Source: a virus (Duplodnaviria > Caudoviricetes). From it: 64,000 nucleotides of DNA. The first letter of the stretch is position 1, and every line of letters starts with the position of its first letter. The stretch lies in IMG/VR virus record IMGVR_UViG_3300025016_000004. The stretch is one strand, 5' to 3'. Position numbers and translations under genes: made by a program. Under the pieces are notes generated by a model. The model was not told where the DNA came from. It saw only the letters and a list, made by a program, of their open reading frames with translations, and did no database searches. Positions 27,264-62,076 of this stretch are shown piece after piece.

Positions 27264-28178
27264 TTATAATTTTCTACCACATTTTGAGCAGAAATTATCT
27301 TTAGCTTTCGCTTTTGCACCACAATTGGTACAGTAAGATTTGTGTAAATCTTGTGTTTCCACATTTTTTTGTGAAATCGGTAATAGTTTATAAGAAACTC
27401 TATGAAATGCATATGTTTCAAATTCAATGTTTACCGTTTGGAATTTTTGATTTGACTGAGCACCTTGCTCCACTCTACCTGTTTCAATCTTTTTGGCAGA
27501 CCTTAATACACTTTTAAGCTTTTTTTCTGAAGGTTGACCTAAAGATGTTGATTTAAAAGCGTCTGGTATTTGAGGTTGTGGTGCGAAATCGTTAGATAAA
27601 CTACCTTGTGACATCATATCTAATGTCGCTGTACTTGAATATAGGGCATTTGTACTAACAGTAGTGCTAGTATTACCAAATGCTACACCATTTGTTGTTG
27701 TAGTATGAGCATACCCGCCACTTGAAGTACCATCAGAATAGGTCCATGTTGGGCCTGAGAATGGAGTCCAAGTAGTACTATTACCAGAATTTATAAAAAT
27801 AGGGTTTAATTTTGTGGTTTGTTCTTTATAGAACAAAACTTCAACATCACCATTATCTCTAATAGCTTGTTTTACTTCATCACCACCTGATACTTCATAG
27901 GTATCAAATTTAAATTTCTTATCTATATCAAAATACCTATCAAGAAATACACGCTCACCAGGTCTCAACACCAATCCACTTTGTGAAATTAGTTTGTTGT
28001 TCAACTTGATTTTGGCTAAAACCTTATCGGTTGTTGGATTGAATAATTCAATTTGGAATTGACTTGATTTATGTAAATAATACACAGGTATTTCATTTTT
28101 TTTATCATATTGTTTAATTCTACTTTTATTTATTGCTAAATAAGCTGTAGGTTCATTATTTTTCATTATATTTTTCAT
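27264..28178 (-). CDS. Hypothetical protein with C-terminal zinc ribbon; its N-terminal 37 aa are a replacement segment carried behind the HE
   Basis: YCTNCG...FCSKCG at the C-terminus; N-terminus paralogous to the stub at 29027-29194; ATGA overlap with the HE stop. Confidence 0.75.
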   Translation of the reverse strand: MKNIMKNNEPTAYLAINKSRIKQYDKKNEIPVYYLHKSSQFQIELFNPTTDKVLAKIKLNNKLISQSGLVLRPGERVFLDRYFDIDKKFKFDTYEVSGGDEVKQAIRDNGDVEVLFYKEQTTKLNPIFINSGNSTTWTPFSGPTWTYSDGTSSGGYAHTTTTNGVAFGNTSTTVSTNALYSSTATLDMMSQGSLSNDFAPQPQIPDAFKSTSLGQPSEKKLKSVLRSAKKIETGRVEQGAQSNQKFQTVNIEFETYAFHRVSYKLLPISQKNVETQDLHKSYCTNCGAKAKAKDNFCSKCGRKL

Positions 28179-29005
28179 TTTTTTAAATTTTTATATTTCC
28201 AAATAAACCCATAAGATGTTCTTGCTTTATTATTACAACACATCCAAATATTACCTACAGATAAATTTAACGCTTTCGAAGCTATTCCAGCTGAATCCCA
28301 TTCAGTTATTAAATTCATTTCTAAATCATATTGTAATACAGGTTTAGATTTTTTATTATTTTTACCACTATTTGCGGAACCAATTTTTTGTTTATGCTCG
28401 TTTGTTAGAGTTTTACCTAACATTGGTCCTAACCCAAAATGTGGATTTTTATTACCTCTTTTAGCTTCAGACATTTTTTGTTTTGATTCTTCTGAATGTT
28501 TTTTATTGAAAAAGGGGTTAGTTTTATCTTTACTAATTTCTAAATTAGAAGATTCATTAATAAAATATTGATTTTCGTCTTTATTTAATAAAGTTTTTGT
28601 TAATATTATGTGATGACCTTTTAAGTTAGATTTTAATTTAGCTTCAGACATTTTTTGTTTTGATTCTTCTGAAAATTTAAAACCAAGAGTAGACCCCGCA
28701 ATCCCACTAATATTATAACCAATGTTTTTGTCACAAACATTTAAATTATCAATAAATGTTTGTTCTTCCATTAATAATAAATTTTTTTCTGGTTTAACTT
28801 CTAAAATAGGTTTGAATTCAAAAGAAGTTTCACCATATTTATTCCAAGCATTTTGTAAATGTGAGTTGGGATGCTTATTTTTACGCAATAATTTTTTATG
28901 GTCATTAAATCTTATTTTAAAATTTTTTGTTGACCCAATATATAATTTATGGTTATTTAAATTAATTATTTTATAAACACCTGATTTGTATTCTATTTTT
29001 TTCAT
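28175..29005 (-). CDS. Free-standing GIY-YIG homing endonuclease with NUMOD3 repeats and C-terminal HTH
   Basis: SGVYKIINLNNHKLYIGST...RFNDH; HSEESKQKMSEAK repeats; KPVLQYDL...YGFIWKY. Confidence 0.9.
   Translation of the reverse strand: MKKIEYKSGVYKIINLNNHKLYIGSTKNFKIRFNDHKKLLRKNKHPNSHLQNAWNKYGETSFEFKPILEVKPEKNLLLMEEQTFIDNLNVCDKNIGYNISGIAGSTLGFKFSEESKQKMSEAKLKSNLKGHHIILTKTLLNKDENQYFINESSNLEISKDKTNPFFNKKHSEESKQKMSEAKRGNKNPHFGLGPMLGKTLTNEHKQKIGSANSGKNNKKSKPVLQYDLEMNLITEWDSAGIASKALNLSVGNIWMCCNNKARTSYGFIWKYKNLKK
28460..28673. repeat. 37-nt perfect direct repeat (two copies, 28460-28496 and 28637-28673)
   Basis: tttagcttcagacattttttgttttgattcttctgaa twice; encodes duplicated SEESKQKMSEAK (NUMOD3). 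Confidence 0.85.
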
Positions 29006-29026
29006 AATATTATTTTTATATAAATA

Positions 29027-29194
29027 TTAAATTAAATAGAAGTATTCAACCCTAATGGGGTTTAAAATTAATAAAATTTTTTGAAGATAGTAAGTCGGAA
29101 TATTTGACTTATTGTTATACATTTTTACTCTACCTTTGTTGATAGCAAGAGTCGCTGTTGGGTTAGGATTACCCACCTTTACATTTGTTTTCAT
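29027..29194 (-). pseudogene. Displaced original 5' end (stub) of the zinc-ribbon gene
   Basis: MKTNVKVGNPNPTATLAINKGRVKMYNNKSNIPTYYLQK then unrelated ILLILNPIRVEYFYLI-stop; 18/28 identical to PTAYLAINKSRIKQYDKKNEIPVYYLHK. Confidence 0.85.
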
Positions 29195-29217
29195 AATTAC
29201 TTTTAATTTTTAATTAT

Positions 29218-29277
29218 GTACCAATCTTTTTGTTACCGAAATAACTCCAAAGCCGTTTATCGACTCAAGACCAATAC
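29218..29277 (-). ncRNA. Candidate structured cis-regulatory RNA (three-way junction) in a 5' leader
   Basis: P1 GUAUUGGUCUU/AAGAUUGGUAC, P2 GAGUCG-AUAAA-CGGCUU, P3 GUUAU-UUCG-GUAAC; folded by hand only. Confidence 0.4.
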
Positions 29278-29395
29278 GTATTGTTAATCACGTTATATAA
29301 GTAAATATATGAAATCTAAAAAAAACGTCAAGTTTTTTTAAAAAAATAATCTATTTATTATATGTCTCTTGGCTTAGAAATAAGGTTTTTAAAGC

Positions 29396-29560
29396 TTAAT
29401 AAGTTTTGGTAAAATTATCACACCCAACGTGATTTCCATTAATAAAGAAAAATTTACAACGTATTTTTTTTACGTTATTATCCGCTTTATTGAAAGTATT
29501 ACAATATTGCTTAATGGGGCAATCTTTGTTAGTACATTTTATATTATCCTTTTCTTTCAT
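29396..29560 (-). CDS. 54-aa Cys-rich protein; not in the ORF track
   Basis: MKEKDNIKCTNKDCPIKQYCNTFNKADNNVKKIRCKFFFINGNHVGCDNFTKTY. Confidence 0.45.
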   Translation of the reverse strand: MKEKDNIKCTNKDCPIKQYCNTFNKADNNVKKIRCKFFFINGNHVGCDNFTKTY

Positions 29561-30965
29561 CTACTTGGCTAGTAATGTCAAAACTAATTATATTTTTAGT
29601 TGTGGTCACTTCGTAGCTTGATGTTGCTTTAACATCTAAGTAGTATCTATTTGGAACAAGACTTGCAGTATCCAATAGGAAATAATTATAATTGAAGGCT
29701 AATTCAACTGGTGTGTAATCAATTACAGTATATTCAGCTTTACCTTCCTTAACATATAATCTATATTCTAAAGAATCTAAAACCTCTTGTTGATTAACAG
29801 TATACGGAATTCTAGCCATAACCCTAACCTTTCTAATATCACCTCTATTAATTTTTTCACCATCTTTTATTCCTGATACATTAAATGTGTAATTTTTAGG
29901 TATTGACGAATCTGACCCTATTTTATAGTATTCGTCAGCTGATTTCAATTCAAATTCTAATTCAGCGTTTGGTCTGGTAACGCCATTGATGGTAATTCCA
30001 CTCCAAATATCTTCGTATAATACACATCCTACTGGTGTAGTTGGTACCAATAATTGAATTGAGTATACACCTTTGGTTTCATGAGTAATATCAGCACCCG
30101 TAAATGCAGAAACTACATCACCTAAATTATCTAATATTGTAACACCCATACCTGACATAGAATCAACATTGGTTGGGACGCCACCGACATTAACATATAG
30201 GTATAATTTATTAAGCTTATCTAAATAAAAATTACCTCTGTTATCAAGAATGGTATTATTATATCTAGATTCTACATAAGGTTCGTAAAAAGTTTGTGTA
30301 TGTCTGGTAAAGAAACCAACATATTTTAAATTGTCTTCAATAGCGTTTTCAAGTGCATCATCAAATGCTAAACCTAAACCATAATTTGTATCACCAGTTA
30401 AATATCCATTTACGATATCTGTAATGTCCATCTCAAGATTTTCATTACCATCTGCGAAGTGTTGTGTTACCAATGTAACTCCTGATGTTGCGCCAGTATA
30501 CACACCGCTACCACTTGGCCAGTTGGTACCAGTTTGAGCGTCAATCCAATTGGATGGTGCATCACTTAAAACAGTTGCATTAGAAGATGTGAAGTATTTT
30601 TGACCAGCAAAATCATAACCTATACCTTCGTCCCATTCTTGGTCAATAGCAAATAAATTTAAGTTGAAAGAACTTGTTCTATCTTTACCATCACCAGTCT
30701 CTTTACCCAATAATGAAGTATCGAAAGTGCTGGTATTGGTCATTCTAAGTGTATGGGTTAAACCAGTTAATTCTGGGTACATACCAGTATTATAAAATTC
30801 TTTTAATCTAGTAATATCAAAATGGAAGATATACCTAGTATATAGTGGGTTTTCCGTTAACCAAACCCCACCGTAAAATAGTTCGGCCACAGGGTTTTTA
30901 CCAGTGTTAACGTTTTGATTGTACACCAGTGTATTATTTTTATCAAAGTAACTTCTTACTACCAT
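29544..30965 (-). CDS. Probable virion structural protein (DNRLRE-like beta domain)
   Basis: YTRYIFHFDITRLK, FAIDQEWDEGIGYD; Thr/Gly-rich; adjacent to the gp5-like gene; ATATTTAT upstream. Confidence 0.55.
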   Translation of the reverse strand: MVVRSYFDKNNTLVYNQNVNTGKNPVAELFYGGVWLTENPLYTRYIFHFDITRLKEFYNTGMYPELTGLTHTLRMTNTSTFDTSLLGKETGDGKDRTSSFNLNLFAIDQEWDEGIGYDFAGQKYFTSSNATVLSDAPSNWIDAQTGTNWPSGSGVYTGATSGVTLVTQHFADGNENLEMDITDIVNGYLTGDTNYGLGLAFDDALENAIEDNLKYVGFFTRHTQTFYEPYVESRYNNTILDNRGNFYLDKLNKLYLYVNVGGVPTNVDSMSGMGVTILDNLGDVVSAFTGADITHETKGVYSIQLLVPTTPVGCVLYEDIWSGITINGVTRPNAELEFELKSADEYYKIGSDSSIPKNYTFNVSGIKDGEKINRGDIRKVRVMARIPYTVNQQEVLDSLEYRLYVKEGKAEYTVIDYTPVELAFNYNYFLLDTASLVPNRYYLDVKATSSYEVTTTKNIISFDITSQVDERKG

Positions 30966-30996
30966 TTCTCGCTTTTATAATAAATATCTAGTTTTT

Positions 30997-31938
30997 TTAA
31001 TTAATCTTTATATTTCTAGATAGTAATGATTCTAAGTTAAATTCCAATACTTTAGTTATATCATTAGAACCAGAAAGGTCTTGTGGTTTCATGCCTGGAT
31101 ATGGATGAACATGATTAATAAAAGCATTGATGAATAATTTCAAAAATTCCACTAAATTATCACCAAAAACCAATGGATGGGCATCTTTTATAATTTTTTG
31201 TATTTCTTTATCGGTAATCATAGAATCTTGGTCATTCAATCTAAATCTAGGGCTTCCATTCTTATGGGTTAATAAATTAATTTTATTACTAACAACATTT
31301 ACTACACCACCTAATTGATTATTTCTGGTATCATCAGATTCAGTTAAAACTACATCATGTTTAACTTGAATAAACGATGGGTTAATTGAATTAAATTTTG
31401 GTATATCTCCATTCCCTGTTGTAGAGTCAGATTGACCAGCTCTAATCAACACTTCCTTTTCTTTAAATATGATGTCAGAATTATTTCTACCTTGTATTGC
31501 TATTGTATCTAAATCTGGATATACACCTCGGTTTTCTGGTATAGTAAATGGTGCTGGTTTAGCTTGTTTAATTCCACTATTCAAAGTTGATTTTGCTGAA
31601 AATAAATCACTATCTTTTTGTAAATTTTGAGGTTGTGAAATAATAGGACCCAAATACATTCTATCAATATATGGGTTTTTCACGTCTGGTATGAAAATCA
31701 TAACCGTTTCACCTATTTTAGGTATAACATGAAAGAATTTTTGGAGCATAGGGAATGCATAGTTCAAATCACCATCTACCACAGGGTCATCTATGCCCGT
31801 TATACGTACTTTAATGCGATTTGCACCCACTTCATCATAATTTGATATAACTCTACCATAATAGAATACTGTGGTCTCTAATAGCTTACCAGAACCTTTA
31901 TTATATATACTACCACCACCGTATGCGTATTTACTCAT
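30997..31938 (-). CDS. Baseplate hub / gp5-like N-terminal OB-fold protein
   Basis: GRVISNYDEVGANRIKVRI...AFPMLQKFFHVIPKIGETVMIF; C-terminal HVHPYPG. Confidence 0.7.
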   Translation of the reverse strand: MSKYAYGGGSIYNKGSGKLLETTVFYYGRVISNYDEVGANRIKVRITGIDDPVVDGDLNYAFPMLQKFFHVIPKIGETVMIFIPDVKNPYIDRMYLGPIISQPQNLQKDSDLFSAKSTLNSGIKQAKPAPFTIPENRGVYPDLDTIAIQGRNNSDIIFKEKEVLIRAGQSDSTTGNGDIPKFNSINPSFIQVKHDVVLTESDDTRNNQLGGVVNVVSNKINLLTHKNGSPRFRLNDQDSMITDKEIQKIIKDAHPLVFGDNLVEFLKLFINAFINHVHPYPGMKPQDLSGSNDITKVLEFNLESLLSRNIKIN

Positions 31939-31943
31939 TATAT

Positions 31944-32108
31944 TTACCCTCTTTTATTTAAAATCGCTTTACCTTTGGCATATTCAGCATCTAATTTATC
32001 TAATTTATCAACCAATTGCCCAATTTGAGTTTTAATTGCTTCGTATTCTTGAAGCATTTTAAGATGATGGGCGTTTATTTCCATATTTGACATTTCTTCG
32101 TAATTCAT
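31944..32108 (-). CDS. 54-aa coiled-coil protein; not in the ORF track
   Basis: MNYEEMSNMEINAHHLKMLQEYEAIKTQIGQLVDKLDKLDAEYAKGKAILNKRG; fills the gap between flanking genes. Confidence 0.6.
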   Translation of the reverse strand: MNYEEMSNMEINAHHLKMLQEYEAIKTQIGQLVDKLDKLDAEYAKGKAILNKRG

Positions 32109-32110
32109 AA

Positions 32111-32515
32111 TTATCGTATTACACCTTCACCCACACCAACGTTTGTTGTTGCGCCTTGACTTATTACTGGCCCACCCATATTACCTAAACCAGTTGTGGT
32201 TACTTGGACTCCAGGCGGTACAACCACTTCTATTTTAGCATCAAGTTGCATAGCACTTATAATTTCTTCAATTAAAATTACGGTCATAGATTCCATAATA
32301 TTTGAATTTTGAGAGAATACATCACCAACAGGTGCTCCAGCTTCCGATTGTCTGGCTATAACCCTTGAAGCAATATTCCTTGCGCTTAACCCCGGCCTCA
32401 ATCTAGCACCAACTAATATTAATTGTGGTGGTAAACTTTCTAGTGGTGTTCTAGGTGTTGAAAATGCCGCCTTTAACGTATTGATGACGTTTGTCATTGA
32501 ACTCCTTTGTGCCAT
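32111..32515 (-). CDS. Probable baseplate-associated structural protein
   Basis: Position next to the gp5-like gene; C-terminal beta-rich VTTTGLGNMGGPV. Confidence 0.5.
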   Translation of the reverse strand: MAQRSSMTNVINTLKAAFSTPRTPLESLPPQLILVGARLRPGLSARNIASRVIARQSEAGAPVGDVFSQNSNIMESMTVILIEEIISAMQLDAKIEVVVPPGVQVTTTGLGNMGGPVISQGATTNVGVGEGVIR

Positions 32516-32518
32516 GAT

Positions 32519-33973: not shown

Positions 33974-33981
33974 TATGTGGT

Positions 33982-34353
33982 TTATTCAGGTTTTTTATTT
34001 CTAGCTTCAACTAATTCTCTAACTCTTTGGAAACTATCTTTGTTGACAATTTCTGAATTATTAGAAAATGCGGCTGCAACATTACCACTATGCTTTATAA
34101 TATCACTTTGTAATTTACCAACATCTAATTTAATCTTAATTGCAGAGTCTTTAAGTTTTAATGCGTCAGTCTTAGCTTTAGCTATTTTAGTCCAATCATC
34201 AACATCTTCTGGTGTTGCTGCGGCAGAAACCTCATTAATTACCTTTTGAGCGTCTTGAATTTGGTTACATGCGTTATTATAAACTTCTTGCATCACATTT
34301 TGAAGTGAGTCATTATCGTTTATCTCTATTTGTTGTCTTTTACTTCTAGGCAT
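33982..34353 (-). CDS. Hypothetical helical protein
   Basis: CTATTTAT variant motif upstream (34370-34377). Confidence 0.55.
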   Translation of the reverse strand: MPRSKRQQIEINDNDSLQNVMQEVYNNACNQIQDAQKVINEVSAAATPEDVDDWTKIAKAKTDALKLKDSAIKIKLDVGKLQSDIIKHSGNVAAAFSNNSEIVNKDSFQRVRELVEARNKKPE

Positions 34354-35141: not shown

Positions 35142-35147
35142 GAAATG

Positions 35148-38006: not shown

Positions 38007-39812
38007 TTATTTATCAGTGTCTGGTTTTTTATAATTCCTAACCATTTTAGTTATTAATGGATTTCTAACGATATCATTTTCATCAAATTCAAAGAACCCA
38101 ATTTCATCGATATTTCTATGTCTATTCATGGCATCATATAACCCCGTTTTAGTGGCATCATCATATCTATCAGATTGGTCCATATCTCCAGAAACAATAT
38201 ATTTTGAACCGTACCCGATTCTAGTTAAAAGACTTTTCATTTGAGATGGTGACATATTTTGAGCTTCCTCACCGATTAAGATTGAATTATCTAAGGTTTT
38301 ACCTCTAATAAAACCCAAAGGTTCAACCATTAATTCTTTAGAATCTTCTAATTTCCTTCTAGCATCTTCACCTATAATTTTATCAACAATGTCGATTGAT
38401 GCAGCTAAATATGGCTCTAGTTTTTCTTTTAGATTTCCAGGTAAGAATCCTAAGTTCTCTTCAGCTTCAACGGCTGGTTTAACTATTAAAATTTTATTGA
38501 ATGAATTATCTGGGTCTTGAAGTAGTTCTAAAGCTACTGCGATAGCTACGAAAGAATTATGTGTAACTATGAAGTTATCTGTAATATATAAAGAATCTTT
38601 ACTATCAATTGAGATACATTTAGCTTCTGATTGACCTATAGGTTCTATGTCAGTGATATAACGTTTTGGTATATATTTAGTTTTAGGTTTAACTAATTGT
38701 GCTTTTCTTTTTAATTTAAATGGATTAACCTCTGGTGGTAGTGATATAGTTAAGGTGTATGCTTTTTTACATAAAATTTTTTCACCATTATTATCAATAT
38801 ATGAACCTATTTTATCGTTTAACTTAAAAACACCCCCTAAACTATTAACGATAAAACAAACTCCATCAATTAAATCTTTAGATGTGTTAGTGAAAAATGT
38901 GGAAGTACCATTCTTATTTACATAACCATCGGTATCCATTAACCCTCTTAATACTTCTAATCTAACTTTTTTAGTATTAAAAAGGTATTTATCTGGTATT
39001 TTTTTATTTATTGTTGCAATATTTTTTAAGTTTAATTCATTTAAATTATTTAAAATTTCATTATTATTATTTTCACCAATAATTGAGTATTGATACTTAC
39101 CACTTTTTTTATTTATTGTGTGATAATCATTTAATCTTTCGGAAATAAGTTCTACGATTTCAGTATCTTGAGTTGTAAATGTAATTCTATTTTGCGTTAA
39201 ACCACCATCACCTAATAAACATCCTAGAACATAGGGGTCAATAAATAATTCCTTTTCTTCAAATTCAATTGATTTAACTAATGGGATTGTGTGATTTTTA
39301 TCACCTCTACTGGTATTTAAGGTTTCCATTATTTCACTCAAAGGTTTTACATGACCCTTTCTGGGTGAGTAAAATCTTTTACCACCTTTTTTTACTCTAT
39401 AATTTCTATCGTAATATGTGTCAGTTAACCATAAATGCTCATCACAACAATCTGTATAAGAACTATCATTAAAATATACCCTATAAATTTCTTTAATACC
39501 TTGAGGGTGAATTTGAATAACTTTTGTTGGTTTACCTTCAGGGGTTAAAACTTCATCACCAACTCGTATCTCACCCATAGTAGTCCAACCGTTAGGTGTA
39601 AGTATTTTAGAATACAATGGTTGTGCTTTCCCTACGCCAGCAGGCCCAGAACAAAGAACAATTTCTTTCTCTTTAATTAAATTTACAAAATCTTTTTGTT
39701 TAGTGTTTTTGCACTTTAATCTTACCTTGAGTGGTAAGATTTTATTTACAGACCTTTCCTTTGTGGTTGGTTGTGTTGGTGTACTTGTTGTACTTCTTTT
39801 ACCTTTTGCCAT
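38007..39812 (-). CDS. phoH: PhoH-family ATPase with intein
   Basis: SGPAGVGK/SF, KPAVEAEENLGFLPG, PLGFIRGKTL, EEAQN, SGDMDQSD, IVRNPLI. Confidence 0.93.
   Translation of the reverse strand: MAKGKRSTTSTPTQPTTKERSVNKILPLKVRLKCKNTKQKDFVNLIKEKEIVLCSGPAGVGKAQPLYSKILTPNGWTTMGEIRVGDEVLTPEGKPTKVIQIHPQGIKEIYRVYFNDSSYTDCCDEHLWLTDTYYDRNYRVKKGGKRFYSPRKGHVKPLSEIMETLNTSRGDKNHTIPLVKSIEFEEKELFIDPYVLGCLLGDGGLTQNRITFTTQDTEIVELISERLNDYHTINKKSGKYQYSIIGENNNNEILNNLNELNLKNIATINKKIPDKYLFNTKKVRLEVLRGLMDTDGYVNKNGTSTFFTNTSKDLIDGVCFIVNSLGGVFKLNDKIGSYIDNNGEKILCKKAYTLTISLPPEVNPFKLKRKAQLVKPKTKYIPKRYITDIEPIGQSEAKCISIDSKDSLYITDNFIVTHNSFVAIAVALELLQDPDNSFNKILIVKPAVEAEENLGFLPGNLKEKLEPYLAASIDIVDKIIGEDARRKLEDSKELMVEPLGFIRGKTLDNSILIGEEAQNMSPSQMKSLLTRIGYGSKYIVSGDMDQSDRYDDATKTGLYDAMNRHRNIDEIGFFEFDENDIVRNPLITKMVRNYKKPDTDK
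38556..39626 (-). mobile_element. Class-3 (Ala1) LAGLIDADG intein in the PhoH Walker A, 357 aa
   Basis: GPAGVGK|[14 protein letters not shown]...CDEHLW...AKCISI...IVTHN|SFVA; WCT triplet; GCLLGDG and GLMDTDG. Confidence 0.9.
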
Positions 39813-39882: not shown

Positions 39883-40875
39883 CTATATTTTAGCTTCTTT
39901 ATTTTCGTAGCGTTTTTCTAATTCAGCTAACTTGTACTTTTCGAATATGTTATCTCCATTTACTGTAACTTCAGCAATGAATTTAATTACATAGTGTCCG
40001 TTAAATTCAACGATTTTATCGAATTTTTTTACCTCATATTCATATTCTAAACCATCAATTGCACCTATGGTTTTATCAGTAATGAAACCAATCTTAGTAA
40101 TATCAAGTATATTTGAAGCTCTAGGGTTTTTTATAGCTTTTTTAATTTCACCTATTAAAAATTTGGTTTTCTTATCATATTCATCTTGGTAAGAAGATAC
40201 GTAAAATTCCAATAATTTTTCAGTTTCGTTGATATTTCTAACTAACAATTTTTTGGCATAATATTCAATTTCAAATTTCGGTCTAATATCCCTGTCCACA
40301 TATAGAGCCTTTTTTGATTGCATTGTGGACACCATATCATCAAAAGAAATCTCAGCCAACGTATTACCACTCCAAACATCCGCACCAACTAAATCAAACA
40401 TTATTTTACCATCAATAGGTGTATTATCACCTTTTGGGTTAAGTTTTAATTTATCGTTGCTGAAGGCTTCATAAGCTGATTTGGTGATGTCTTCATTCAT
40501 GACAACTAGCTCAACTGGATACGGGTCGAAGTTATCACGGGTTACTTTATCTAATTTATATTTCTCAATATTATAGGTTTCAACTATTGGTAATCCATCA
40601 GCATCATAACCAACTATTTTAGCTGTTTTATTTTTAGATTCACTTAAAACTTTATACAACCGCCATCTCAACTCTTTAACTTGTTGATTCGTTATCTGAT
40701 TTTTTAACCCATGTAATAATGTACCTTGGTCCTTTTCTATTATTAATCCAACACCTGACAAGTCGGAAGTTTTTGATTGAGATAATATCTTTTTATCAAA
40801 AACTGATAAACCAATCAAAAGCCCCATAATTTTATTTTTTATCCACGTCATATTTGTATTGCCATTTAAATCCAC
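39883..40875 (-). CDS. Hypothetical protein; N-terminus (to VKE) is a replacement segment behind the HE; likely start ATG 40851
   Basis: N-terminus aligns without gaps to the stub at 41643-41828; start overlaps the HE 3' end. Confidence 0.7.
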   Translation of the reverse strand: MDLNGNTNMTWIKNKIMGLLIGLSVFDKKILSQSKTSDLSGVGLIIEKDQGTLLHGLKNQITNQQVKELRWRLYKVLSESKNKTAKIVGYDADGLPIVETYNIEKYKLDKVTRDNFDPYPVELVVMNEDITKSAYEAFSNDKLKLNPKGDNTPIDGKIMFDLVGADVWSGNTLAEISFDDMVSTMQSKKALYVDRDIRPKFEIEYYAKKLLVRNINETEKLLEFYVSSYQDEYDKKTKFLIGEIKKAIKNPRASNILDITKIGFITDKTIGAIDGLEYEYEVKKFDKIVEFNGHYVIKFIAEVTVNGDNIFEKYKLAELEKRYENKEAKI

Positions 40876-41596
40876 CCGTTTTATTTCTTTTACCTAAACA
40901 AACCGCACTTATTTTACCTCTAATTATATTTAATTCTTTTTCAGCTTCCCCAGCGTGTGACCATAATTTAATTATTTCACCATCTAACCCAATTTGGTAG
41001 ACGTGTTTTCTTTTATTAGAAACTTCACCCTTTTTACTTTCACTTATTTTAGCCCTAACTACTTCACTAACTATTCTACCTGTTAATTTTTTTGATAGTT
41101 TTATTTTAGTTTCTTCTGATGTAACTCTCCCCATATTAGCTTTACTAATTTTTAATTTAGTTTCTTTGGACAATTTACTACCAGTTCTTAATTTTTTCAT
41201 TCTAATAGAAATCTCTTTTGAATATCTTTTAGCTAAATTCGACATTTTTTTCTTGGTTTCATCACTATGCTTATGCCCTATATTACCATGACCACCCTCA
41301 TTACAATTTAAACCAAACTTAAAACAATCATAATGTTTAATCCAATACTTTTCACGATTATTTAAATATTCTTTATTTACCCCACATAAACATTCTTCGA
41401 TTATTTCATAAGTATCAACAGGGTTCCATTTATGTTTTTCGCAACTAGCCCATAATTTTATTTGCGATTTAAAACCCCCCTTTTTATAATTATATTTTCT
41501 TTTTTTATTATTTATTGTTTGACCTATATAAATTTTACCGTTTGGGCTAGTTAATTTATAAATATAACCCTTTACATTTCTTAAATCTTTTTTCAT
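40832..41596 (-). CDS. Free-standing GIY-YIG homing endonuclease with NUMOD repeats
   Basis: GYIYKLTSPNGKIYIGQT; HSDETKKKMS-type repeats; KTGGFKWQY; ATG at 41596. Confidence 0.9.
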   Translation of the reverse strand: MKKDLRNVKGYIYKLTSPNGKIYIGQTINNKKRKYNYKKGGFKSQIKLWASCEKHKWNPVDTYEIIEECLCGVNKEYLNNREKYWIKHYDCFKFGLNCNEGGHGNIGHKHSDETKKKMSNLAKRYSKEISIRMKKLRTGSKLSKETKLKISKANMGRVTSEETKIKLSKKLTGRIVSEVVRAKISESKKGEVSNKRKHVYQIGLDGEIIKLWSHAGEAEKELNIIRGKISAVCLGKRNKTGGFKWQYKYDVDKK

Positions 41597-41642
41597 AAAC
41601 ACTATTTATTAATAAATATATAATTTTTAATAAAAGTGAAAA

Positions 41643-41828
41643 TTATTCTTTAACAGGCATCGTTATCTCACCTCGTAATAGAGCATCAGCTAACATGCCT
41701 TGTTGATATGTTTGTTCCATGGAACCAATATCACCCAAAGCGTCAGACTTTTGAGTTAGCATGCTCTTTTCAACCCTAGATAATGATAGGGATAGTAATG
41801 CGAATTTTCGTTTTAAGTAGTTAAGTAT
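41643..41828 (-). pseudogene. Displaced original 5' end (stub) of the 39883-40875 gene
   Basis: ILNYLKRKFALLSLSLSRVEKSMLTQKSDALGDIGSMEQTYQQGMLADALLRGEITMPVKE-stop; ends exactly at VKE, where the downstream gene reads VKELRWR. Confidence 0.75.
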
Positions 41829-56705: not shown

Positions 56706-56721
56706 AATTTATATTTATTTA

Positions 56722-57075
56722 TTAATCGTTATCTTTCACAAAAATTCCATCAACCATTTTACCAGTTCTTTTTGAAATTACATTATAAGCTGACTCTAAA
56801 CAATCTTCTATTGTTAAACCTTGTATTTCAGTTTGAATTATTAGTGTTACTAATATATCACCTATTGCATCTTTAATCTCATGTTCAGTGTTTTTTAAAT
56901 TACCTTTAGGACAAGTAAATTCAAGATTACCCCTTTCTTGAGCATTTAATGCCATGGTTAATTCACCAACTTCTTCTAGAGTTTTTGTGTGTTGGCTAAT
57001 TGGTGTGGCTTTATCAAAAATAGTTTTATCTTTAGCCCAATCAATCACTTTTATATTTAATTCTTTAAAATTCAT
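56722..57075 (-). CDS. mazG: MazG-like nucleotide pyrophosphohydrolase
   Basis: KTLEEVGEL, IKDAIGDILVTL, CLESAYNVISKRTGKMVDGIFVK. Confidence 0.82.
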   Translation of the reverse strand: MNFKELNIKVIDWAKDKTIFDKATPISQHTKTLEEVGELTMALNAQERGNLEFTCPKGNLKNTEHEIKDAIGDILVTLIIQTEIQGLTIEDCLESAYNVISKRTGKMVDGIFVKDND

Positions 57076-57679
57076 TTTTTTGTTTTAGTATATTAAGAGG
57101 TAATAACTTCTCTGTTTTTTTTTTATTATTTGACCACACTATTAATTCATCTAAAGTCACTCTACCATTATAATACGCCCATAATGTTGCGTTACCAAAT
57201 TGTTTATGTAACCATCTATGGTCAGATGGTGTTATTAATACTAAATTATTTGGGTCGTTATTATTAATATTACAATCTCTATGGTGGGTAATATACCCTT
57301 CTGGTAATTTATTAATATTTAACGTTTCAAATACAATTTTATGGTGTAACTTTATTCTACCAAATTTAGGTAAATAATCTAATTTATAACCACCGTCAGT
57401 TGTTACGTTTTCCCTAAAATTTGGGTTATTCTCACCTAAATATTCTTTTTTTCTAAAATTAGCAACACATTTAGTTGAACAGAAATAACCTTGACTTCTT
57501 TTATATCTTTTCTTAGAAGACTCTTTTAAATGAAACCCTACACCACATTGAGTACAGGTCGTATTAGGTTTACTTTTCCTAAAATTTGCTGAACACTCAA
57601 TACTACAAGTATGAGCGTTTTTAATTTGCTTCCCATATCTTTTAAATAGTTTACCACATATTTTACATTCTATTTCCAT
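57065..57679 (-). CDS. Free-standing HNH homing endonuclease with N-terminal CxxC zinc motifs
   Basis: CKICG, CSIEC, CTQCG, CSTKC; HHRDCNINNNDPNNL...HRWLH. Confidence 0.85.
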   Translation of the reverse strand: MEIECKICGKLFKRYGKQIKNAHTCSIECSANFRKSKPNTTCTQCGVGFHLKESSKKRYKRSQGYFCSTKCVANFRKKEYLGENNPNFRENVTTDGGYKLDYLPKFGRIKLHHKIVFETLNINKLPEGYITHHRDCNINNNDPNNLVLITPSDHRWLHKQFGNATLWAYYNGRVTLDELIVWSNNKKKTEKLLPLNILKQKNEF

Positions 57680-57758
57680 AATTTTTTACCTTTAATATGA
57701 ATATAAATATAACGAAAATGGTTTTATTGAAAATATGGGTTAAATCTATTACACCGAC

Positions 57759-58328
57759 TTACTTAGCTAAAAATTTTTCTTCTATTATGGCTAATTTAAT
57801 GGCGATTTTTAAAACGTCACCTAACGTAGAATTGTACCATTCTGATTGTACATCATCAACTTTATCATAATTAACGATAGCCGCAAATTCTTCATCAGTT
57901 AATTTAATACCACAACTCAAAGCATAATAAGCTGAACGCTCACCAACTTTCATTGAGACTAAATCATTATTGAAATCGTAGAACTTACCTCTTTTTTCTC
58001 TTTGCCATGCGTCTTTTTCTGGAATGTATAATTTTACTTTACCAATTCCATGTAATAAAACCACTTTAAATAATGAATCTTCTTTTATTTTTAGCCCATC
58101 GGTTAAATTATTTTCATTTATTTTATATGCATGTTTCATAACTCTAAGTGTGTGGTCAATTAAACCACCCTCAAATGCATTGTTTAAATGCTCAAAGCTA
58201 GATTCTGGTGCTTTTATTAAATCTTCACCTAAAAGATTTTCCAATTCTTCTGTCATAGCACCATGTTTTCTCGCTGCTTCCAAATACCTTTTGGTATTCT
58301 TTACGATTTTTTCTTTTGTTAGTTCCAT
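57759..58328 (-). CDS. HD-domain-like protein (HD motif reads HG)
   Basis: AFEGGLIDHTLRV, VLLHGIGK. Confidence 0.6.
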   Translation of the reverse strand: MELTKEKIVKNTKRYLEAARKHGAMTEELENLLGEDLIKAPESSFEHLNNAFEGGLIDHTLRVMKHAYKINENNLTDGLKIKEDSLFKVVLLHGIGKVKLYIPEKDAWQREKRGKFYDFNNDLVSMKVGERSAYYALSCGIKLTDEEFAAIVNYDKVDDVQSEWYNSTLGDVLKIAIKLAIIEEKFLAK

Positions 58329-58329
58329 T

Positions 58330-58776
58330 TTATACCTCTGTTTTTATTTTTTTATTTCTAAGTCGTTCTTGAAGTTTTTGAAATGCTTCATCCAATTCTT
58401 TTATATCTGTCTTATGTTTTTTATAAGCCTCTATTTTATCCGATTCATCATTTTTTAGAAATTTTTTCATCCTAGCACTAATCCAAAGTGGTCTACGGTA
58501 GTTATATCGATTACCATATAAATCTAAGGCTCCCTTCAATTCTTCATTATACTTCTCCGCTTCTTTTATTGTTTTAATATCTGTGATGGAAGACTTATTT
58601 TTCTGGTACATTAAGTACTGAAGTCTTTTTTTATTTTCTTCTAAGAATGAATACAACGCTTCTTCTCTTGTTAGTTCCATAGGTCTAACAAAATCTTTAT
58701 TTACCAACGAATATAATATCCTAATTATATAAATTGATATCTTTGATAATACACTTTTAATTGTTTTTATATTCAT
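58330..58776 (-). CDS. Hypothetical protein
   Basis: Tightly packed ORF; no motif recognised. Confidence 0.5.
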   Translation of the reverse strand: MNIKTIKSVLSKISIYIIRILYSLVNKDFVRPMELTREEALYSFLEENKKRLQYLMYQKNKSSITDIKTIKEAEKYNEELKGALDLYGNRYNYRRPLWISARMKKFLKNDESDKIEAYKKHKTDIKELDEAFQKLQERLRNKKIKTEV

Positions 58777-58807
58777 TTTTACTTAAAATATTCATAACGC
58801 AATTATA

Positions 58808-61147
58808 CTACTTTTCAGTGCCAAAAACAAGTTTTTTGTAATATTTAGCACGATTTTCTGTAACTTTATCCATTGAGTAGGTTTCAGCCACAGTATTATA
58901 TAAATTATCCCCAAGTATTTTTATCATCTCAGGGTTTTGTATCAATTTTTTAAGGTATTGATACCATTGTTTATGATTCCTATGAGAATCAACCAATAAA
59001 CCATTTTTAGTTAAATCAATTTCACCACCTTTTTGAAATGCATTTTGAATATCAATTGTATAAGGACCATAATTTTGAGCGATTAACGCCTTTTTATGGA
59101 AACCGCTTTCAATTACCTTTAATTGACTTTTAACTTTATTGAAGGTATGTTCAGTCAACGGTGCTAATGAAATATCAAATAAATTATAATTGGTCGCATA
59201 ATTGGTGATTGGTTTTGTCCAAACTCTTCTGTACGGCTCTTGCATAATGCTAGGGAATTCTTCAGTCACATATCTCAATAAATGCTCTTTATATTCTTTT
59301 GAAATTGTCGTATAATCATTGGTGAATATTTTTTCATATTCACACCAAACTGTTTCGTGTGGTAATATATCTCTTTGAGTTTGTTCACCTGTATCTTTGT
59401 TAATTGAATTAACCTTACCTCTAGTATCAAACCCACATAACACAAATTGTATTTTATCTAATAACCCGTCACCTTTTAATTTAGAAACTAATTGATTTAA
59501 TAATTTTAAATCTGCTAAATGACTATTCCCAATCCAAAATGCTTTACCATTTCGTCTAATATATATTATATGATTTTGAACTTCAACGCAATAAACATTT
59601 CCTTTATAATATTTTTTATATTGGTCATCTGTTTTAATTAAAGGGGTATTTTTATTATGTTTACTAACACTAGGGTGTTTTGTAAAATTAACAACTAATG
59701 AATCAAATTGGTTAGTGATTTTACGGCCTTTAATCATAGACGTTCTTTTACCTCGATTAGTAATGGTGGCTGAAATACCTAATTTTAATGCCATTTCTTG
59801 TAAATCATTGGCTAACGCTGATGAAGAGGTAAAAGCTCTAGTTCTACCATATTTGTTATTTTCAATATGACCATCACCATTAATAAACCATTCTAAAAAT
59901 ATCTTTAATTGCCTAGATGACAAATTTAATATTTCTTTAGGTATAAATTTTTCTGTAGCGGTACCAAAATCAGATAAATAATTCCATAATTGTTTATCAA
60001 AGACTCTCAATTGTTTTTTATCTTTAGTGTATTTTGGGTTAAATCCCATTTTAGTTAACAAATTAAACATATGCTCCAAATAATGATTATCTTTAGATTG
60101 AGCAATACCTACTTGATGTAAACCCTTACTTTTACTAGTCCAACCTTCAGCCATCCAAAAGCCGAAAAACTCTAACCAATCATTCATTTCTATCATAGTA
60201 TCAGTCCCATATTTTTCATATAAATCAACCCCATACTTATTTTTTTTATGTCCTTTTATAAAATTTTCATTATAAGCTTCTTCAAATTCGAACTTTAATT
60301 CAGTATAACTAGCTAAATTAGGTAATATAAAATATTCTACCTCATTACCAATCCAATTAGCATTTTTTCTAACATGAAAATTTTTACCATATATTTTTTC
60401 TGATTGTACTAACCCTAAATTCAATTTTTTATGAGTTAAATTCTTAGCTTCTGATGCGTACATATTATGGTTTGGTGTAACTTCATACTCAATTAACCCA
60501 TTTTTAGCACAATTTAATTCACCATCGAATGGTTCACATATATACCCACTTGGTTTATGATATTCCAAATAATTAGTTTCTGGGTTTAATGTTACTACTT
60601 TTTCAGTCTTATCTAACTCATCAAATCGTTTCCAACCACCATCAGTTAAAATTTCGGTATCTGGAGTCATACAACTCCCACCTAACCAACCAATTCTGAT
60701 TTTATCAGAAGGTTCTGGGTTTGAAGTGTATTGTTTTTCTGTTGGGTCAATAGCATTTGGTAAGACTACAACATTCTTGTTATGTTTTTTAATTTCATTT
60801 GCAAAAATTTCTGTTGTTGTTATAATATTCTCAGCAATTTTTAAATTATTAAGGATTTTTTTATCCAAATCATTATTTTTTATAATATGATATGCTGGGT
60901 GAGTCATATCTGGTAACCAATAATCATCTAAATCCATAACTGTAGGGATTCCTAATGATTTTAATTTTTCTAATAATCCTTCCATTTGGTCATAATTACC
61001 CAAAGCTCTATGATAATGAATTAGGTCGTATTGTTTTAACCAATCGTCATCATGTAATTTTGGCTCATATTCAATATCCACATGAAATTCATCTGGATAT
61101 AATTTTTCTAAATGTAAGTTTGGCTTGGTTGAACGAAAATAGCTCAA
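58808..61147 (-). CDS. GT4-like glycosyltransferase with intein; N-terminal strand lies in another frame (61144-61188)
   Basis: MDLDDYW, LPNAID, IGWLGGS/SH, DISLAPL, FNKVKSQLKVIE. Confidence 0.85.
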   Translation of the reverse strand: MSYFRSTKPNLHLEKLYPDEFHVDIEYEPKLHDDDWLKQYDLIHYHRALGNYDQMEGLLEKLKSLGIPTVMDLDDYWLPDMTHPAYHIIKNNDLDKKILNNLKIAENIITTTEIFANEIKKHNKNVVVLPNAIDPTEKQYTSNPEPSDKIRIGWLGGSCMTPDTEILTDGGWKRFDELDKTEKVVTLNPETNYLEYHKPSGYICEPFDGELNCAKNGLIEYEVTPNHNMYASEAKNLTHKKLNLGLVQSEKIYGKNFHVRKNANWIGNEVEYFILPNLASYTELKFEFEEAYNENFIKGHKKNKYGVDLYEKYGTDTMIEMNDWLEFFGFWMAEGWTSKSKGLHQVGIAQSKDNHYLEHMFNLLTKMGFNPKYTKDKKQLRVFDKQLWNYLSDFGTATEKFIPKEILNLSSRQLKIFLEWFINGDGHIENNKYGRTRAFTSSSALANDLQEMALKLGISATITNRGKRTSMIKGRKITNQFDSLVVNFTKHPSVSKHNKNTPLIKTDDQYKKYYKGNVYCVEVQNHIIYIRRNGKAFWIGNSHLADLKLLNQLVSKLKGDGLLDKIQFVLCGFDTRGKVNSINKDTGEQTQRDILPHETVWCEYEKIFTNDYTTISKEYKEHLLRYVTEEFPSIMQEPYRRVWTKPITNYATNYNLFDISLAPLTEHTFNKVKSQLKVIESGFHKKALIAQNYGPYTIDIQNAFQKGGEIDLTKNGLLVDSHRNHKQWYQYLKKLIQNPEMIKILGDNLYNTVAETYSMDKVTENRAKYYKKLVFGTEK
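59525..60673 (-). mobile_element. LAGLIDADG intein in the glycosyltransferase, 383 aa, penultimate Gly
   Basis: WLGGS|CMTPDTEILTDGGW...VTPNH...GFWMAEG...FINGDG...VYCVEV...WIGN|SHLAD. Confidence 0.9.
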
Positions 61148-61227
61148 CTTACCCCAGTACGGTCTGAAGGGACTACAAGTATCTTCATTTTTTGACCTAC
61201 TGGGGTATCAATTTTGTTTGTTTTCAT
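61144..61227 (-). CDS. Recoded replacement N-terminus of the glycosyltransferase (27 aa, or 14 aa from ATG 61188), out of frame with the gene body
   Basis: MKTNKIDTPVGQKMKILVVPSDRTGVS-stop; body continues (TTG) AGC TAT TTT CGT = SYFR. Confidence 0.75.
   Translation of the reverse strand: MKTNKIDTPVGQKMKILVVPSDRTGVS
61150..61207 (-). other. Strong RNA hairpin starting immediately after the HE stop codon and enclosing the replacement AUG
   Basis: TACCCCAGTA-GGTC ... GACC-G-TACTGGGGTA (14 bp, one bulge) plus inner TGAAG/CTTCA. Confidence 0.75.
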
Positions 61228-61975
61228 AATATTTTATTATTTCGTTTATTAGTTCTGGGTTTCTTTTATAATCACTTTCCCAAATAACTTTACTATTATA
61301 ACCATTTTTTTTCGCTAAGTAAAGCTTTTTATTATCACATAACCAAATTTCTTTGGCTGTTTTACTTTTTTTCTTATGCCAATACTCAGCATTATATTTT
61401 TTTGGGTTACAATGCCAATAATCACCATTATACTCTATTAATAAATTAAATTGTGGGACGTAAATATCAAAAATTTTACTTCCTATTCTATAATTAGGTT
61501 CACAATTAATACCTACTTCACTTAATTTATTTATTATTTCATCTTCAGCTTTAGACCTATTATAACTTTTTAATTCACCATTCATTATCCTTTCTTTCAT
61601 CAACTTACTCATTTTAACCCTAACACCTTCCATTTCACCACTTGCCCATAATTTTTTTTTCATATCACTAAACATTTTTCTATATTTTGGTTTAGACATG
61701 TGATTACTGGTGGAAACCCCTATTTTTGATTTACTTATCTTGTTTTTAGTTTCTTCAGTATGGGTTTTATTATAAAATGGGTTACCAACACCTTTTTGTT
61801 TTTTTAATGAACATTTTTTACATATACCTTTCTTTTTTAAATTTCTAGCTAAATAATATTCTTTTGAGGCTTCAACTAATATTTTATTTTTACATAAATG
61901 GCATTTGTAAAAAGAATACCATTTCTGGTTATCAACATTAAATTTGAAGTGTTTATATTTTTCATTTGATTCCAT
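61208..61975 (-). CDS. Free-standing homing endonuclease, DUF559/Vsr-like
   Basis: SKAEDEI, FDIYVPQFNLLIEYNGDYWHCNP, VIWESDY; N-terminal CHLC/CKKC. Confidence 0.85.
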   Translation of the reverse strand: MESNEKYKHFKFNVDNQKWYSFYKCHLCKNKILVEASKEYYLARNLKKKGICKKCSLKKQKGVGNPFYNKTHTEETKNKISKSKIGVSTSNHMSKPKYRKMFSDMKKKLWASGEMEGVRVKMSKLMKERIMNGELKSYNRSKAEDEIINKLSEVGINCEPNYRIGSKIFDIYVPQFNLLIEYNGDYWHCNPKKYNAEYWHKKKSKTAKEIWLCDNKKLYLAKKNGYNSKVIWESDYKRNPELINEIIKYYENKQN

Positions 61976-62004
61976 AAATTATTTATTAATAAATATGGAA
62001 AAAT

Positions 62005-62076
62005 TTATAAAAAGTTTAAGTATGATACACCTGTTCTGTCACTTGGGACAACTAAGATTTTTATTTTTTTACTCAT
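62005..62076 (-). pseudogene. Displaced original 5' end (stub) of the glycosyltransferase gene
   Basis: MSKKIKILVVPSDRTGVSY then LNFL-stop. Confidence 0.88.

Follow-up and report, generated by a model that had tools for sequence, protein, structure and literature searches.

Apparent homing endonuclease cassettes with replacement 5′ gene ends at three sites in an uncultured giant phage, one with a candidate ribosomal hop

The closest known system to the loci analyzed here is the MobA/gene 60 element of T4; the MobA element of T4-like phages was reportedly described by Bonocora et al. in PNAS in 2011. A mobile endonuclease ORF carrying a replacement gene terminus is said to have been found in atp6 of Allomyces macrogynus by Paquin et al. 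in 1994, and synthetic stop-hops were reportedly obtained in E. coli reporters by Weiss, Dunn, Atkins and Gesteland in 1987. The MobA element is a free-standing homing endonuclease (HE) element of ~1.1 kb at a fixed site inside the ORF of a topoisomerase gene, consisting of mobA and the gene 60 bypass cassette; the insert encodes homR, its N-terminal extension and the HE overlap, and the bypass blocks self-cleavage (bioRxiv 10.1101/2022.08.31.505936). The HE can be lost with the bypass retained, some metagenomic copies have it swapped for a Vsr-type or GIY-YIG nuclease, and the 2022 survey of MobA by Manning & Atkins still calls the gene 60 bypass cassette unique (bioRxiv 10.1101/2022.08.31.505936). 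HE insertions that split genes within the ORF include mobE in Aeh1 nrdA and seg43(25) in gene 43 (PMC2988022), and intronless homing has been described for the T4 seg/mob genes SegB, SegF, SegG, and MobE (PMC2988022, PMC2330249).

The window, by which we mean the whole stretch of 64,000 nt that was analyzed, comes from an uncultured giant phage (Duplodnaviria; Caudoviricetes) and holds three loci with the same order on the minus strand: a resident 5′ stub, an AT-rich spacer, an HE gene, a replacement 5′ end of the target gene (N′), and the gene body (Table 1). This layout had been proposed in a first-pass annotation and is present at all three sites. It is probable that each locus is a discrete mobile cassette of ~1 kb—spacer, free-standing HE, and N′—sitting at a fixed codon in the 5′ part of its gene. 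Each HE ORF has its own start and stop codons, and the start codon of N′ overlaps the HE stop or 3′ end in every cassette. The annotated spacer motif, ATATTTAT, occurs in each of the three spacers, although its extended form ATATTTATWAA shows no significant enrichment in the window (5 matches vs. 2.2 expected); each spacer is conserved where its cassette recurs in other phages. That two unrelated nuclease families are involved was borne out by Pfam, with GIY-YIG domains in HE1 (plus NUMOD3/NUMOD1) and HE2 (plus NUMOD3) vs. NUMOD3 and a Vsr/REase-like C-terminal domain in HE3, the latter being MTES_1575 (below Pfam's cut-off) in a protein assigned to a PHROG “homing endonuclease.” The targets are a zinc-ribbon protein (cassette 1), an unknown protein (cassette 2), and a glycosyltransferase (cassette 3).

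Table 1. Features of the three loci in the 64,000-nt window.
Feature	Position	Strand	Description
Cassette 1	28061–29077	−	
Stub 1	29027–29194	−	Native part 29078–29194 (39 codons), then 16 codons into spacer before stop
Cassette 1 spacer	29006–29077	−	Left end of cassette; GC 14%; contains ATATTTAT
HE1	28175–29005	−	GIY-YIG/NUMOD homing endonuclease, 276 aa (Pfam, PHROGs)
N′1	28061–28178	−	Gene 1 replacement 5′ end, about 40 codons, signature KSSQF; ATG overlaps HE1 stop (ATGA)
Gene 1 body	27264–28060	−	Conserved phage protein, C-terminal zinc ribbon
Cassette 2	40674–41646	−	
Stub 2	41643–41825	−	Native part 41647–41825, 60 codons; start lost (ATA); stop is first cassette codon
Cassette 2 spacer	41597–41646	−	GC 8%; contains ATATTTAT
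HE2	40832–41596	−	GIY-YIG/NUMOD homing endonuclease, 254 aa (Pfam, PHROGs)
N′2	40672–40851	−	Gene 2 replacement 5′ end, 60 codons, MTWIKNK...QQVKE; start 20 nt inside HE2 3′ end
Gene 2 body	39883–40671	−	Conserved phage protein of unknown function adjoining phoH
Cassette 3	61145–62019	−	
Stub 3	62005–62076	−	Native part 62020–62076, MSKKIKILVVPSDRTGVSY, then 4 spacer codons and stop
Cassette 3 spacer	61976–62019	−	GC 7%; contains ATATTTAT
HE3	61208–61975	−	NUMOD3 plus Vsr/REase-like endonuclease, 255 aa
Leader/N′3	61147–61227	−	27 codons, MKTNKIDTPVGQKMKILVVPSDRTGVS; start 20 nt inside HE3 3′ end; last codon is take-off AGT
RNA hairpin	61150–61207	−	58 nt; closes immediately 5′ of take-off codon
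Putative hop site	61142–61149	−	Take-off AGT 61147–61149, stop TGA 61144–61146, landing AGC 61142–61144; +5 shift
Glycosyltransferase body	58808–61144	−	From landing codon; also contains LAGLIDADG intein

Like MobA, the cassettes occupy a fixed site within an ORF, include a region homologous to the displaced host sequence, and carry an N-terminal extension lying in a different frame over the 3′ end of the HE; cassette 3 also shares with MobA/gene 60 a stop right after the take-off codon and a matched landing codon. In MobA, however, the split gene yields two polypeptides, both functional, the upstream one bearing a conserved C-terminal extension, whereas our loci have the entire 5′ end replaced, leaving upstream a decaying stub of 19–60 native codons. 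The nucleases are GIY-YIG or Vsr-like instead of HNH, the target genes differ from topoisomerase, and cassettes 1 and 2 have no bypass. At the cassette 3 junctions the gap is 2–10 nt rather than the 50 nt of gene 60, whose bypass also involves a take-off stem-loop and a nascent-peptide signal, and a strongly conserved 5′ hairpin stands in place of the stem-loop. The mobE/nrdA and seg43(25)/gene 43 pairs resemble our loci in placing a free-standing HE in a conserved gene without intron or intein, function presumably being kept, but they yield two reassembling polypeptides without duplicating or replacing any of the gene. With the T4 seg/mob genes the cassettes share GIY-YIG/NUMOD nucleases, presence/absence polymorphism, flank co-conversion, and host transcription signals; those HEs are nevertheless intergenic, need homology in both neighboring genes, and have neither replacement segment nor stub. 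Fungal mitochondrial elements likewise combine an HE in a gene without splicing, a foreign copy of the displaced gene end, and a hybrid gene, yet there the 3′ end is replaced, often by in-frame HE fusion, in organelle genomes, while the phage cassettes replace the 5′ end and give it a start codon of its own that overlaps the HE stop. The idea of a 5′ replacement therefore has partial precedents in MobA homR and the replacement 3′ ends of fungal mitochondria. As in synthetic stop-hops, where peptidyl-tRNA detaches from a codon that precedes a stop and pairs again at a synonymous one a few nt further on (+5, +6), the cassette 3 junction pairs synonymous codons across a stop; the synthetic cases were inefficient and artificial, whereas this signature is conserved in natural genes together with a dedicated, covarying hairpin.

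In cassette 1, the stub is identical at 39/39 residues to the HE-free relative P0002, and over 200 nt, 5′ UTR included, its DNA identity to HE-free L224 is 99% up to the break; homology to L224 stops after 29078 and resumes in the gene 1 body at 28060, the body having 88.6% DNA identity. Stub 1 and N′1 are recognizably related (BLASTP E 1e-10, 19/31 identical), and the N′1 type is also found in L226, L227, and P0001. Homologues of HE1 occur in an identical layout in L226 and L227 (75% and 68% identity), the spacer being conserved in the L226 cassette, and gene 1 itself has 1535 homologues.

Stub 2 begins immediately behind the stop codon of the gene upstream (41825), which makes the extent first annotated for it too short, and its start has been lost because ATA stands where relatives have ATG. 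It matches HE-free P0122 at 57/61 residues (93% DNA identity; DNA aligned with L175). Direct comparison of stub 2 with N′2 is not significant alone (BLASTP E 2.4; local score 49 vs. a null 95th percentile of 41), but the relation is secure because the stub matches P0122 and N′2 matches P0167, its best hit (39/60 identical). Gene 2 is a chimera, since the body of P0167 is only 46% identical to that of the window, which in turn is 90% identical (236/261) to the body of P0122; N′2 is thus foreign to the local lineage. No family in Pfam or PHROG matched the gene 2 body. HE2 is 69% identical to the HE of L177, with further homologues in L228, L229, and L230.

Stub 3 matches the intact N-termini of HE-free relatives (e.g. 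L016 and L017) in MSKKIKILVVPSDRTGVS. Compared with stub 3, N′3 is identical at 13/13 residues despite changes at 16/39 bases, all synonymous (counted on the sequence), and the leader retains the native N-terminal residues through AGY/TCN switches of serine codons. The cassettes of L024 and L025 conserve the spacer, and the genome of the window has a near-copy of it at another position. For HE3, 80 related loci were kept, and most of those examined adjoin this glycosyltransferase gene. The annotated succession of replacement and body holds here only in part: N′ is present as at the other two sites, but the replacement ORF (61144–61227) terminates in TGA and is not in frame with the body, the leader ending AGT-TGA and the body resuming at AGC 5 nt on.

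We tabulated 22 distinct diverged junctions of this kind. A stop codon follows the take-off codon in 22/22, and take-off and landing codons are synonymous in all except L075, where AGT/GGC are unmatched (21/22). The shifts range from +5 to +13 (gap 2–10 nt), six of them not multiples of 3. The structure at the gap is the 5′ hairpin ending at the take-off codon, with its 5′ arm in the leader extension (TPVGQ) and its 3′ arm in the SDRTGV codons. Its energy is −27.1 kcal/mol (z −5.0), and the same fold was obtained for all 22 homologous leaders. Pairs of the outer and middle helices are 90% canonical vs. 79% in shuffles, with 0/1000 shuffles reaching the observed value, and one pair occurs as five canonical pair types. 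The junctions share a conserved hop signature with hairpin covariation. Given this combination of a kept stop, a synonymous landing codon (21/22), shifts between +5 and +13, and hairpin covariation, a programmed ribosomal hop is indicated, and ribosomes most likely hop from AGT to AGC in cassette 3.

It is unlikely that cassette 3 involves no hop at all and that the glycosyltransferase is either made in two pieces, a leader peptide and a body initiated at TTG 61147 or at some later start, or is inactive. Genes split by HEs can stay functional, as in Aeh1 nrdA (PMC2988022), and a truncated product is possible in the window because TTG directly precedes the landing codon. Against this, a possible start codon lies ahead of the landing codon at only 3/22 junctions, the next start of the body is 5–106 codons downstream, and the body ORFs stay open for 378–778 codons with one exception at 280. 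The native residues kept by the leader through its serine switches also speak for an intact product, and the synonymous codon pairs and the gaps that are not multiples of 3 would be left unexplained. On balance we favor reading cassette 3 as a second, independently evolved family of HE-borne programmed translational bypass, in which the stop-containing gap of 2–10 nt would serve as an immunity device, with a covarying hairpin of ~58 nt, refolding behind the ribosome, as the driving force of the hop across it. The three cassettes together would then represent a general splicing-free way for HEs to sit inside essential phage genes with both homology arms within the target.

Presence/absence polymorphism is found at all three sites, each of which has HE-free syntenic relatives, and in these the intact gene corresponds to stub plus body, as had been predicted. 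Intact and syntenic HE-free relatives are L001 and L224/P0002 for cassette 1 and L007–L013 and L175/P0122 for cassette 2; for cassette 3, most of the 80 loci are HE-free, intact, and stub-like. N′-like N-termini occur in 18/120 gene 2 homologues. Among the five examined, no HE-free relative with an N′-type N-terminus appeared: all five have an HE or its remnant directly upstream and four have their own stub, so they are further cassette copies and not HE-free alleles. The layout also recurs in other phages, with spacer-HE-N′ units beside lineage-specific stubs in other contigs: two for cassette 1 (L226, L227), four for cassette 2 (L177, L228, L229, L230, with an HE remnant in L176), and three for cassette 3 (L024, L025, L095, with decayed stubs in L113 and L117). 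Between lineages, the position of the junction varies by no more than 0–3 codons. The tails of stubs past the junction show no conservation.

It is quite unlikely that the loci are accidental scars, one-off products of illegitimate repair after co-conversion from a diverged donor with an intergenic HE, in which case stub and N′ would be by-products and would not make up a mobile unit. More distant HE3 homologues do occupy the usual place between genes, just upstream of a glycosyltransferase gene that is intact and of native type, which fits the intronless T4 seg/mob type and shows a plausible ancestral state, and the N′2 type resembles a natural family variant. Such an accident may account for the origin of a cassette, but not for its spread, since for each cassette 3 to 5 diverged phages share junction codon, spacer, and N′ while their stubs differ by lineage. 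Moreover, HE and N′ are transferred together, both being more alike between carrier phages than the host bodies: HE identity is about 70% against about 50% for the host gene, for instance 69% vs. 47% between the window and L177 and 68–75% vs. 53–55% for the cassette 1 copies. N′ is under purifying selection, with differences mostly at codon positions 1 and 3 (e.g. 13/4/18), a bias that reads as typical of translated sequence. The cassette apparently behaves as one mobile unit in several diverged phages. Co-conversion tracts are unreadable from identity profiles because relatives agree unusually well in their N-terminal DNA (99% and 93% vs. 86–91% in the flanks). No stub layout was seen at the more distant GIY-YIG HE loci inspected, which makes it a property of particular cassettes and not of nuclease families.

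A group I intron or similar element, with stub and body as spliced exons and N′ as intron sequence, is very improbable. HEs inside genes are usually intron-borne or intein-borne, and the end of the stub coincides with the resumption of body homology within 0–3 codons. Nonetheless, no family reached its gathering score in an Rfam search of the whole window, so no intron family was detected, in agreement with the absence of introns noted in the first-pass annotation for these sites. The HE ORFs are free-standing, flanked neither by a ribozyme core nor by intein splicing blocks. Furthermore, stub 2 has no start codon, N′ is constrained at the protein level with an ATG overlapping the HE stop, and many cassette 3 loci keep the leader with the stub missing or decayed. 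That the duplications are assembly chimeras or sequencing errors has a negligible probability even though the genome is a metagenome assembly with a spacer near-copy, given that positions 60900–62300 are spanned with zero differences by one contig in each of four separate aquifer/groundwater run assemblies (which may include the source sample), that the gene 2 and HE1 proteins of the window are on record in 46 and 52 contigs, and that identical layouts occur in unrelated JGI, ENA, and Logan assemblies.

From these arrangements we infer a route in which the HE would cut the intact HE-free allele near the insertion codon and the break would be repaired from a cassette-bearing genome, the conserved resident 5′ end (the later stub) serving as left arm and the gene body as right arm. 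As with introns and inteins, the target gene itself would supply both homology arms, yet no splicing would take place. N′, starting inside the HE 3′ end, would restore a full-length ORF, after which the stub would be dispensable and decay. The carrier should be immune because neither the stub-spacer joint nor the diverged N′-body joint rebuilds the target. The N′-body joint of cassette 3 also contains a stop codon and a 5-nt register offset, and the hop across it would be aided by an A site occupied by the stop and by the long hairpin refolding behind the ribosome. Cleavage specificity, immunity, and the repair route are deduced from sequence, and the divergence of N′ could stem from foreign origin instead of selection for immunity. 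Translation of the repaired gene may be coupled to that of the HE, the basis for this being the start/stop overlaps.

To our knowledge, HEs inside genes have been thought to survive only through introns or inteins or, rarely, by splitting the gene into two working pieces. The cassettes would be a further splicing-free route, used by two unrelated nuclease families in one genome and recurring across many uncultured T4-like phages. Because a substitute gene start is carried and both homology arms lie inside a conserved target, such a cassette would be independent of gene order. For annotation, it accounts for orphan ORFs of small size and for N-termini of chimeric origin in phage genomes, and it warns against labeling the glycosyltransferase a pseudogene. 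The cassette 3 family, with 22 junctions and shifts of +5 to +13, offers natural variation for the study of ribosome hopping outside T4 gene 60.

The layout that the first-pass annotation had ascribed to three of the five free-standing homing endonuclease (HE) genes is confirmed at all three sites. On the minus strand of each, ORF maps and sequence give the same order: a short ORF holding the N-terminus of a gene (the stub), an AT-rich spacer (44–72 nt, GC 7–14%), the HE gene, a second copy of the N-terminus (N′), and the remainder of the gene (the body). The start codon of N′ overlaps the 3′ end of the HE gene, as ATGA in cassette 1 and by 20 nt in cassettes 2 and 3. The split genes encode a zinc-ribbon phage protein (gene 1), a phage protein adjoining phoH (gene 2), and a glycosyltransferase (cassette 3). 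Stub and replacement are strongly similar in cassette 1 (E 1e-10); in cassette 3, 13/13 residues are identical, and a manual count on the sequence gave 16 of 39 bases changed, all synonymously; in cassette 2, direct comparison is weak (E 2.4) and the relationship is secured via homologues. The other endonuclease-like genes of the window lack a stub or duplicate, in line with the annotation's count, and a phmmer search for additional paralogues of the three HEs was negative. At the loci of IMG/VR relatives of HE1 and HE2, all distant (≤44% identity), the stub layout did not rise above a shuffled-pair null, so it is not general to GIY-YIG HEs. Considered as a promoter-like motif, ATATTTATWAA occurs five times where 2.2 occurrences are expected, a non-significant excess. 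Compared by blastn with 50,697 phage records, the three regions gave at most weak Lak-phage and HE matches, or none.

Positions of endonuclease genes and neighboring features (window coordinates; domains of HE1–HE3 from Pfam and PHROGs)
Feature	Position	Strand	Description
Endonuclease-like ORF	725–1897		Neither stub nor duplicate found
HE1	28175–29005	−	GIY-YIG plus NUMOD
Cys-rich ORF	29396–29560	−	54 aa, between a 473-aa gene and stub 1
phoH	38007–39812	−	601 aa
HE2	40832–41596	−	GIY-YIG plus NUMOD
HNH_3 endonuclease gene	57065–57679	−	204 aa, free-standing; no stub or duplicate around it
Glycosyltransferase body	58808–61147	−	LAGLIDADG intein, Pfam LAGLIDADG_3 at residues 416–470
HE3	61208–61975	−	NUMOD3 plus Vsr/REase-like domain
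Terminator-like hairpin	62124–62150	−	Strong, followed by a T run
Gene upstream of the hairpin	62157–62750		

The stub had been taken as the original end of each gene, and syntenic HE-free relatives in IMG/VR and a large protein collection bear this out, with intact genes and stub-like N-termini for all three sites. Gene 1 is single and intact, without an endonuclease, in the related loci L001 and L224. The N-terminus of the HE-free homologue P0002 is identical to stub 1 (39/39 residues), and stub 1 plus its 5′ UTR is 99% identical in DNA to L224 as far as base 29078. Homology picks up again in the body at 28060, so cassette 1 spans 28061–29077 and displaces only ~7 nt of host sequence. Close relatives differ in the upstream flank of this gene, since L224 has two reverse-strand genes in place of the Cys-rich ORF.

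Of the 120 best homologues of gene 2, 102 are stub-like, and the HE-free homologue P0122 matches the window at 57 of 61 stub residues and 236 of 261 body residues. The first 60 residues of gene 2 are closest to P0167 (39/60) and P0165 (34/59), whose bodies are only ~46% identical to that of the window; judged by sequence comparison, the window gene is a chimera, with cassette breakpoints at 41647/41646 and about 40673. Stub 2 extends to 41825 and has ATA where relatives have ATG, so its own start is no longer usable for translation. Synonymous recoding was considered for a tract immediately 3′ of the N′ junction and rejected: its 5 changes in 24 nt do not clearly exceed the background divergence of 13%. 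In the neighboring PhoH, the P-loop (GPAGVGKA...) is followed by an intein-like insert; PhoH in HE-free relatives is 240–241 aa long (L175 1823–2545; L007 5012–5737). In genes 1 and 2, the 5′ UTR together with the N-terminal coding DNA (29078–29277 and 41647–41827) stands out as unusually conserved or as recently exchanged, and these islands coincide exactly with the HE target regions. At the third site, most of 80 related glycosyltransferase loci start M(S)KKIKVLVVPSDRTGV(S/G)(Y/K)FRS in one frame, matching stub 3.

HE and N′ recur together in other phages. L226 and L227 each have an HE1 homologue (75% and 68% identity, respectively) flanked by a local stub and an N′ that shares the KSS(E/Q)F signature; the cassette 1 spacer is conserved. 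Five N′-type gene 2 loci were looked up: a GIY-YIG HE lies directly upstream in L177, L228, L229, and L230 and an HE remnant in L176, and four of the five have a lineage-specific stub ending at the same codon. Cassette 3 stubs with homologous spacers are found in L024, L025 (HE frameshifted), and L095; L113 and L117 have decayed versions, and other loci have none. L053 and L070 keep the leader (N′ of cassette 3) and the gap behind it without an HE. When phages are compared, the HEs are more alike than the host bodies (69% vs 47% identity; 68–75% vs 53–55%). Most differences within N′ are at codon positions 1 and 3, which shows that this segment is translated and under constraint. Sequence relationships of this kind, with the same HE–N′ units beside local stubs, support the earlier proposal that each cassette is a horizontally moving unit supplying a replacement gene start. 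In nine loci (L124, L125, L127, L128, L131, L133, L138, L144, L145), more distant HE3 homologues (33–42% identity) immediately precede a glycosyltransferase gene of native type that is intact and lacks leader, hairpin, and gap; this is probably the ancestral, intergenic arrangement. In L024, the stub end and body start (~2978–2985 and ~4004–4011) both read AGCTACTT, an 8-nt direct repeat flanking the cassette that resembles a target-site duplication and is less clear at other loci.

The last codons of the leader ORF in the window are GTA AGT TGA, and 5 nt on the body resumes with AGC TAT TTT... Two findings show that this break in frame is no error: its sequence is identical in four run assemblies, and the break is kept at 22 distinct junctions, which come from diverged phages. 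All 22 have a Gly or Ser codon followed by TGA or TAA, and in 21 the codon at which the body resumes is synonymous with it; the shift is +6 in 15 junctions, and +5, +7, +8, +9, +10, +11, and +13 once each. Body ORFs are open for 378–778 codons (one exception, 280 codons). Unlike native genes, the leader has an N-terminal extension; it supplies the 5′ arm of a hairpin, and the SDRTGV codons form the 3′ arm. Folded singly, and thus independently of any alignment, all 22 sequences form it at −25 to −33 kcal/mol (z −3.2 to −7.1). With RNAalifold, a plain MAFFT alignment yielded a weak consensus, its 5′ arms being misaligned, and was replaced by a covariance-model alignment. The latter was fitted to the structure, which biases pair counts towards it; canonical pairs make up 90% of the outer and middle helices, compared with 79 ± 1.5% after shuffling of partners (0/1000 shuffles reach the observed value), and one pair takes five canonical forms across 20 of 21 sequences.

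The best reading of these junctions, as we infer it, is a short programmed hop, in which the ribosome would jump from take-off to landing codon over the stop, helped by the hairpin refolding behind it; such refolding has been discussed as a driver for gene 60 (bioRxiv 10.1101/2024.12.09.627546). The glycosyltransferase of this window may instead be made in two pieces or be inactive, as a TTG precedes the landing codon here, but this fits the cassette 3 family poorly as a whole: only 3 of the 22 junctions have a start codon of any sort before the landing codon. The sole non-synonymous junction (L075 ~3989–3997, AGT TAA GGC) may reflect imperfect landing of the hop or, alternatively, read-through that adds one extra residue. 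A Shine–Dalgarno-like role for the GGGG upstream of the take-off codon was set aside, as gene starts here lack such sequences.

The window body is 779 aa long, against ~405–425 aa in most relatives, and contains an intein, so that one gene bears an HE cassette, a putative hop site, and an intein. Because the terminator-like hairpin follows the upstream gene, the promoter for the stub and cassette 3 should lie between ~62080 and 62140. A 35-nt spacer (61979–62013) is matched, with one mismatch and one gap, by a second contig, whose depth equals that of the phage, in each of four runs; the genome therefore has a further copy of this HE upstream region, which may precede another HE gene.

An accidental scar may describe how such a structure originated, but leaves its recurrence unexplained. 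Placement of the HEs in introns or inteins is excluded: an Rfam search found no intron family, the start of stub 2 is dead, N′ is under constraint, and some loci have no stub at all. Assembly chimeras, one of the cases that the first-pass annotation had named against itself, are likewise excluded, as independent assemblies carry the structures.

In fungal mitochondrial elements, it is the 3′ ends that are replaced. No published 5′-replacement HE cassette in phages was found in the literature searched, whose incomplete coverage does not prove absence; a review of free-standing HEs inside phage ORFs gives only gene-splitting cases (PMC2988022). The MobA/gene 60 element is the closest known system, sharing a fixed site inside an ORF, a homologous region encoded by the insert, an N-terminal extension overlapping the HE, a bypass (which in MobA guards against self-cleavage and is putative here), and decay of the HE while the bypass stays. 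It differs in that MobA splits its gene into two working polypeptides and in the 50-nt gap of gene 60.

The 5′ regions share 99% and 93% DNA identity with relatives, against 86–91% for the flanks, an unusual conservation that would suit a segment serving as homing target and homology arm alike. In the mechanism that we propose, each HE would cut the intact allele at the junction codon, and repair would copy spacer, HE, and N′ from the carrier genome, with the conserved 5′ end and the body serving as homology arms; carriers, with their target split by the cassette, would be immune.
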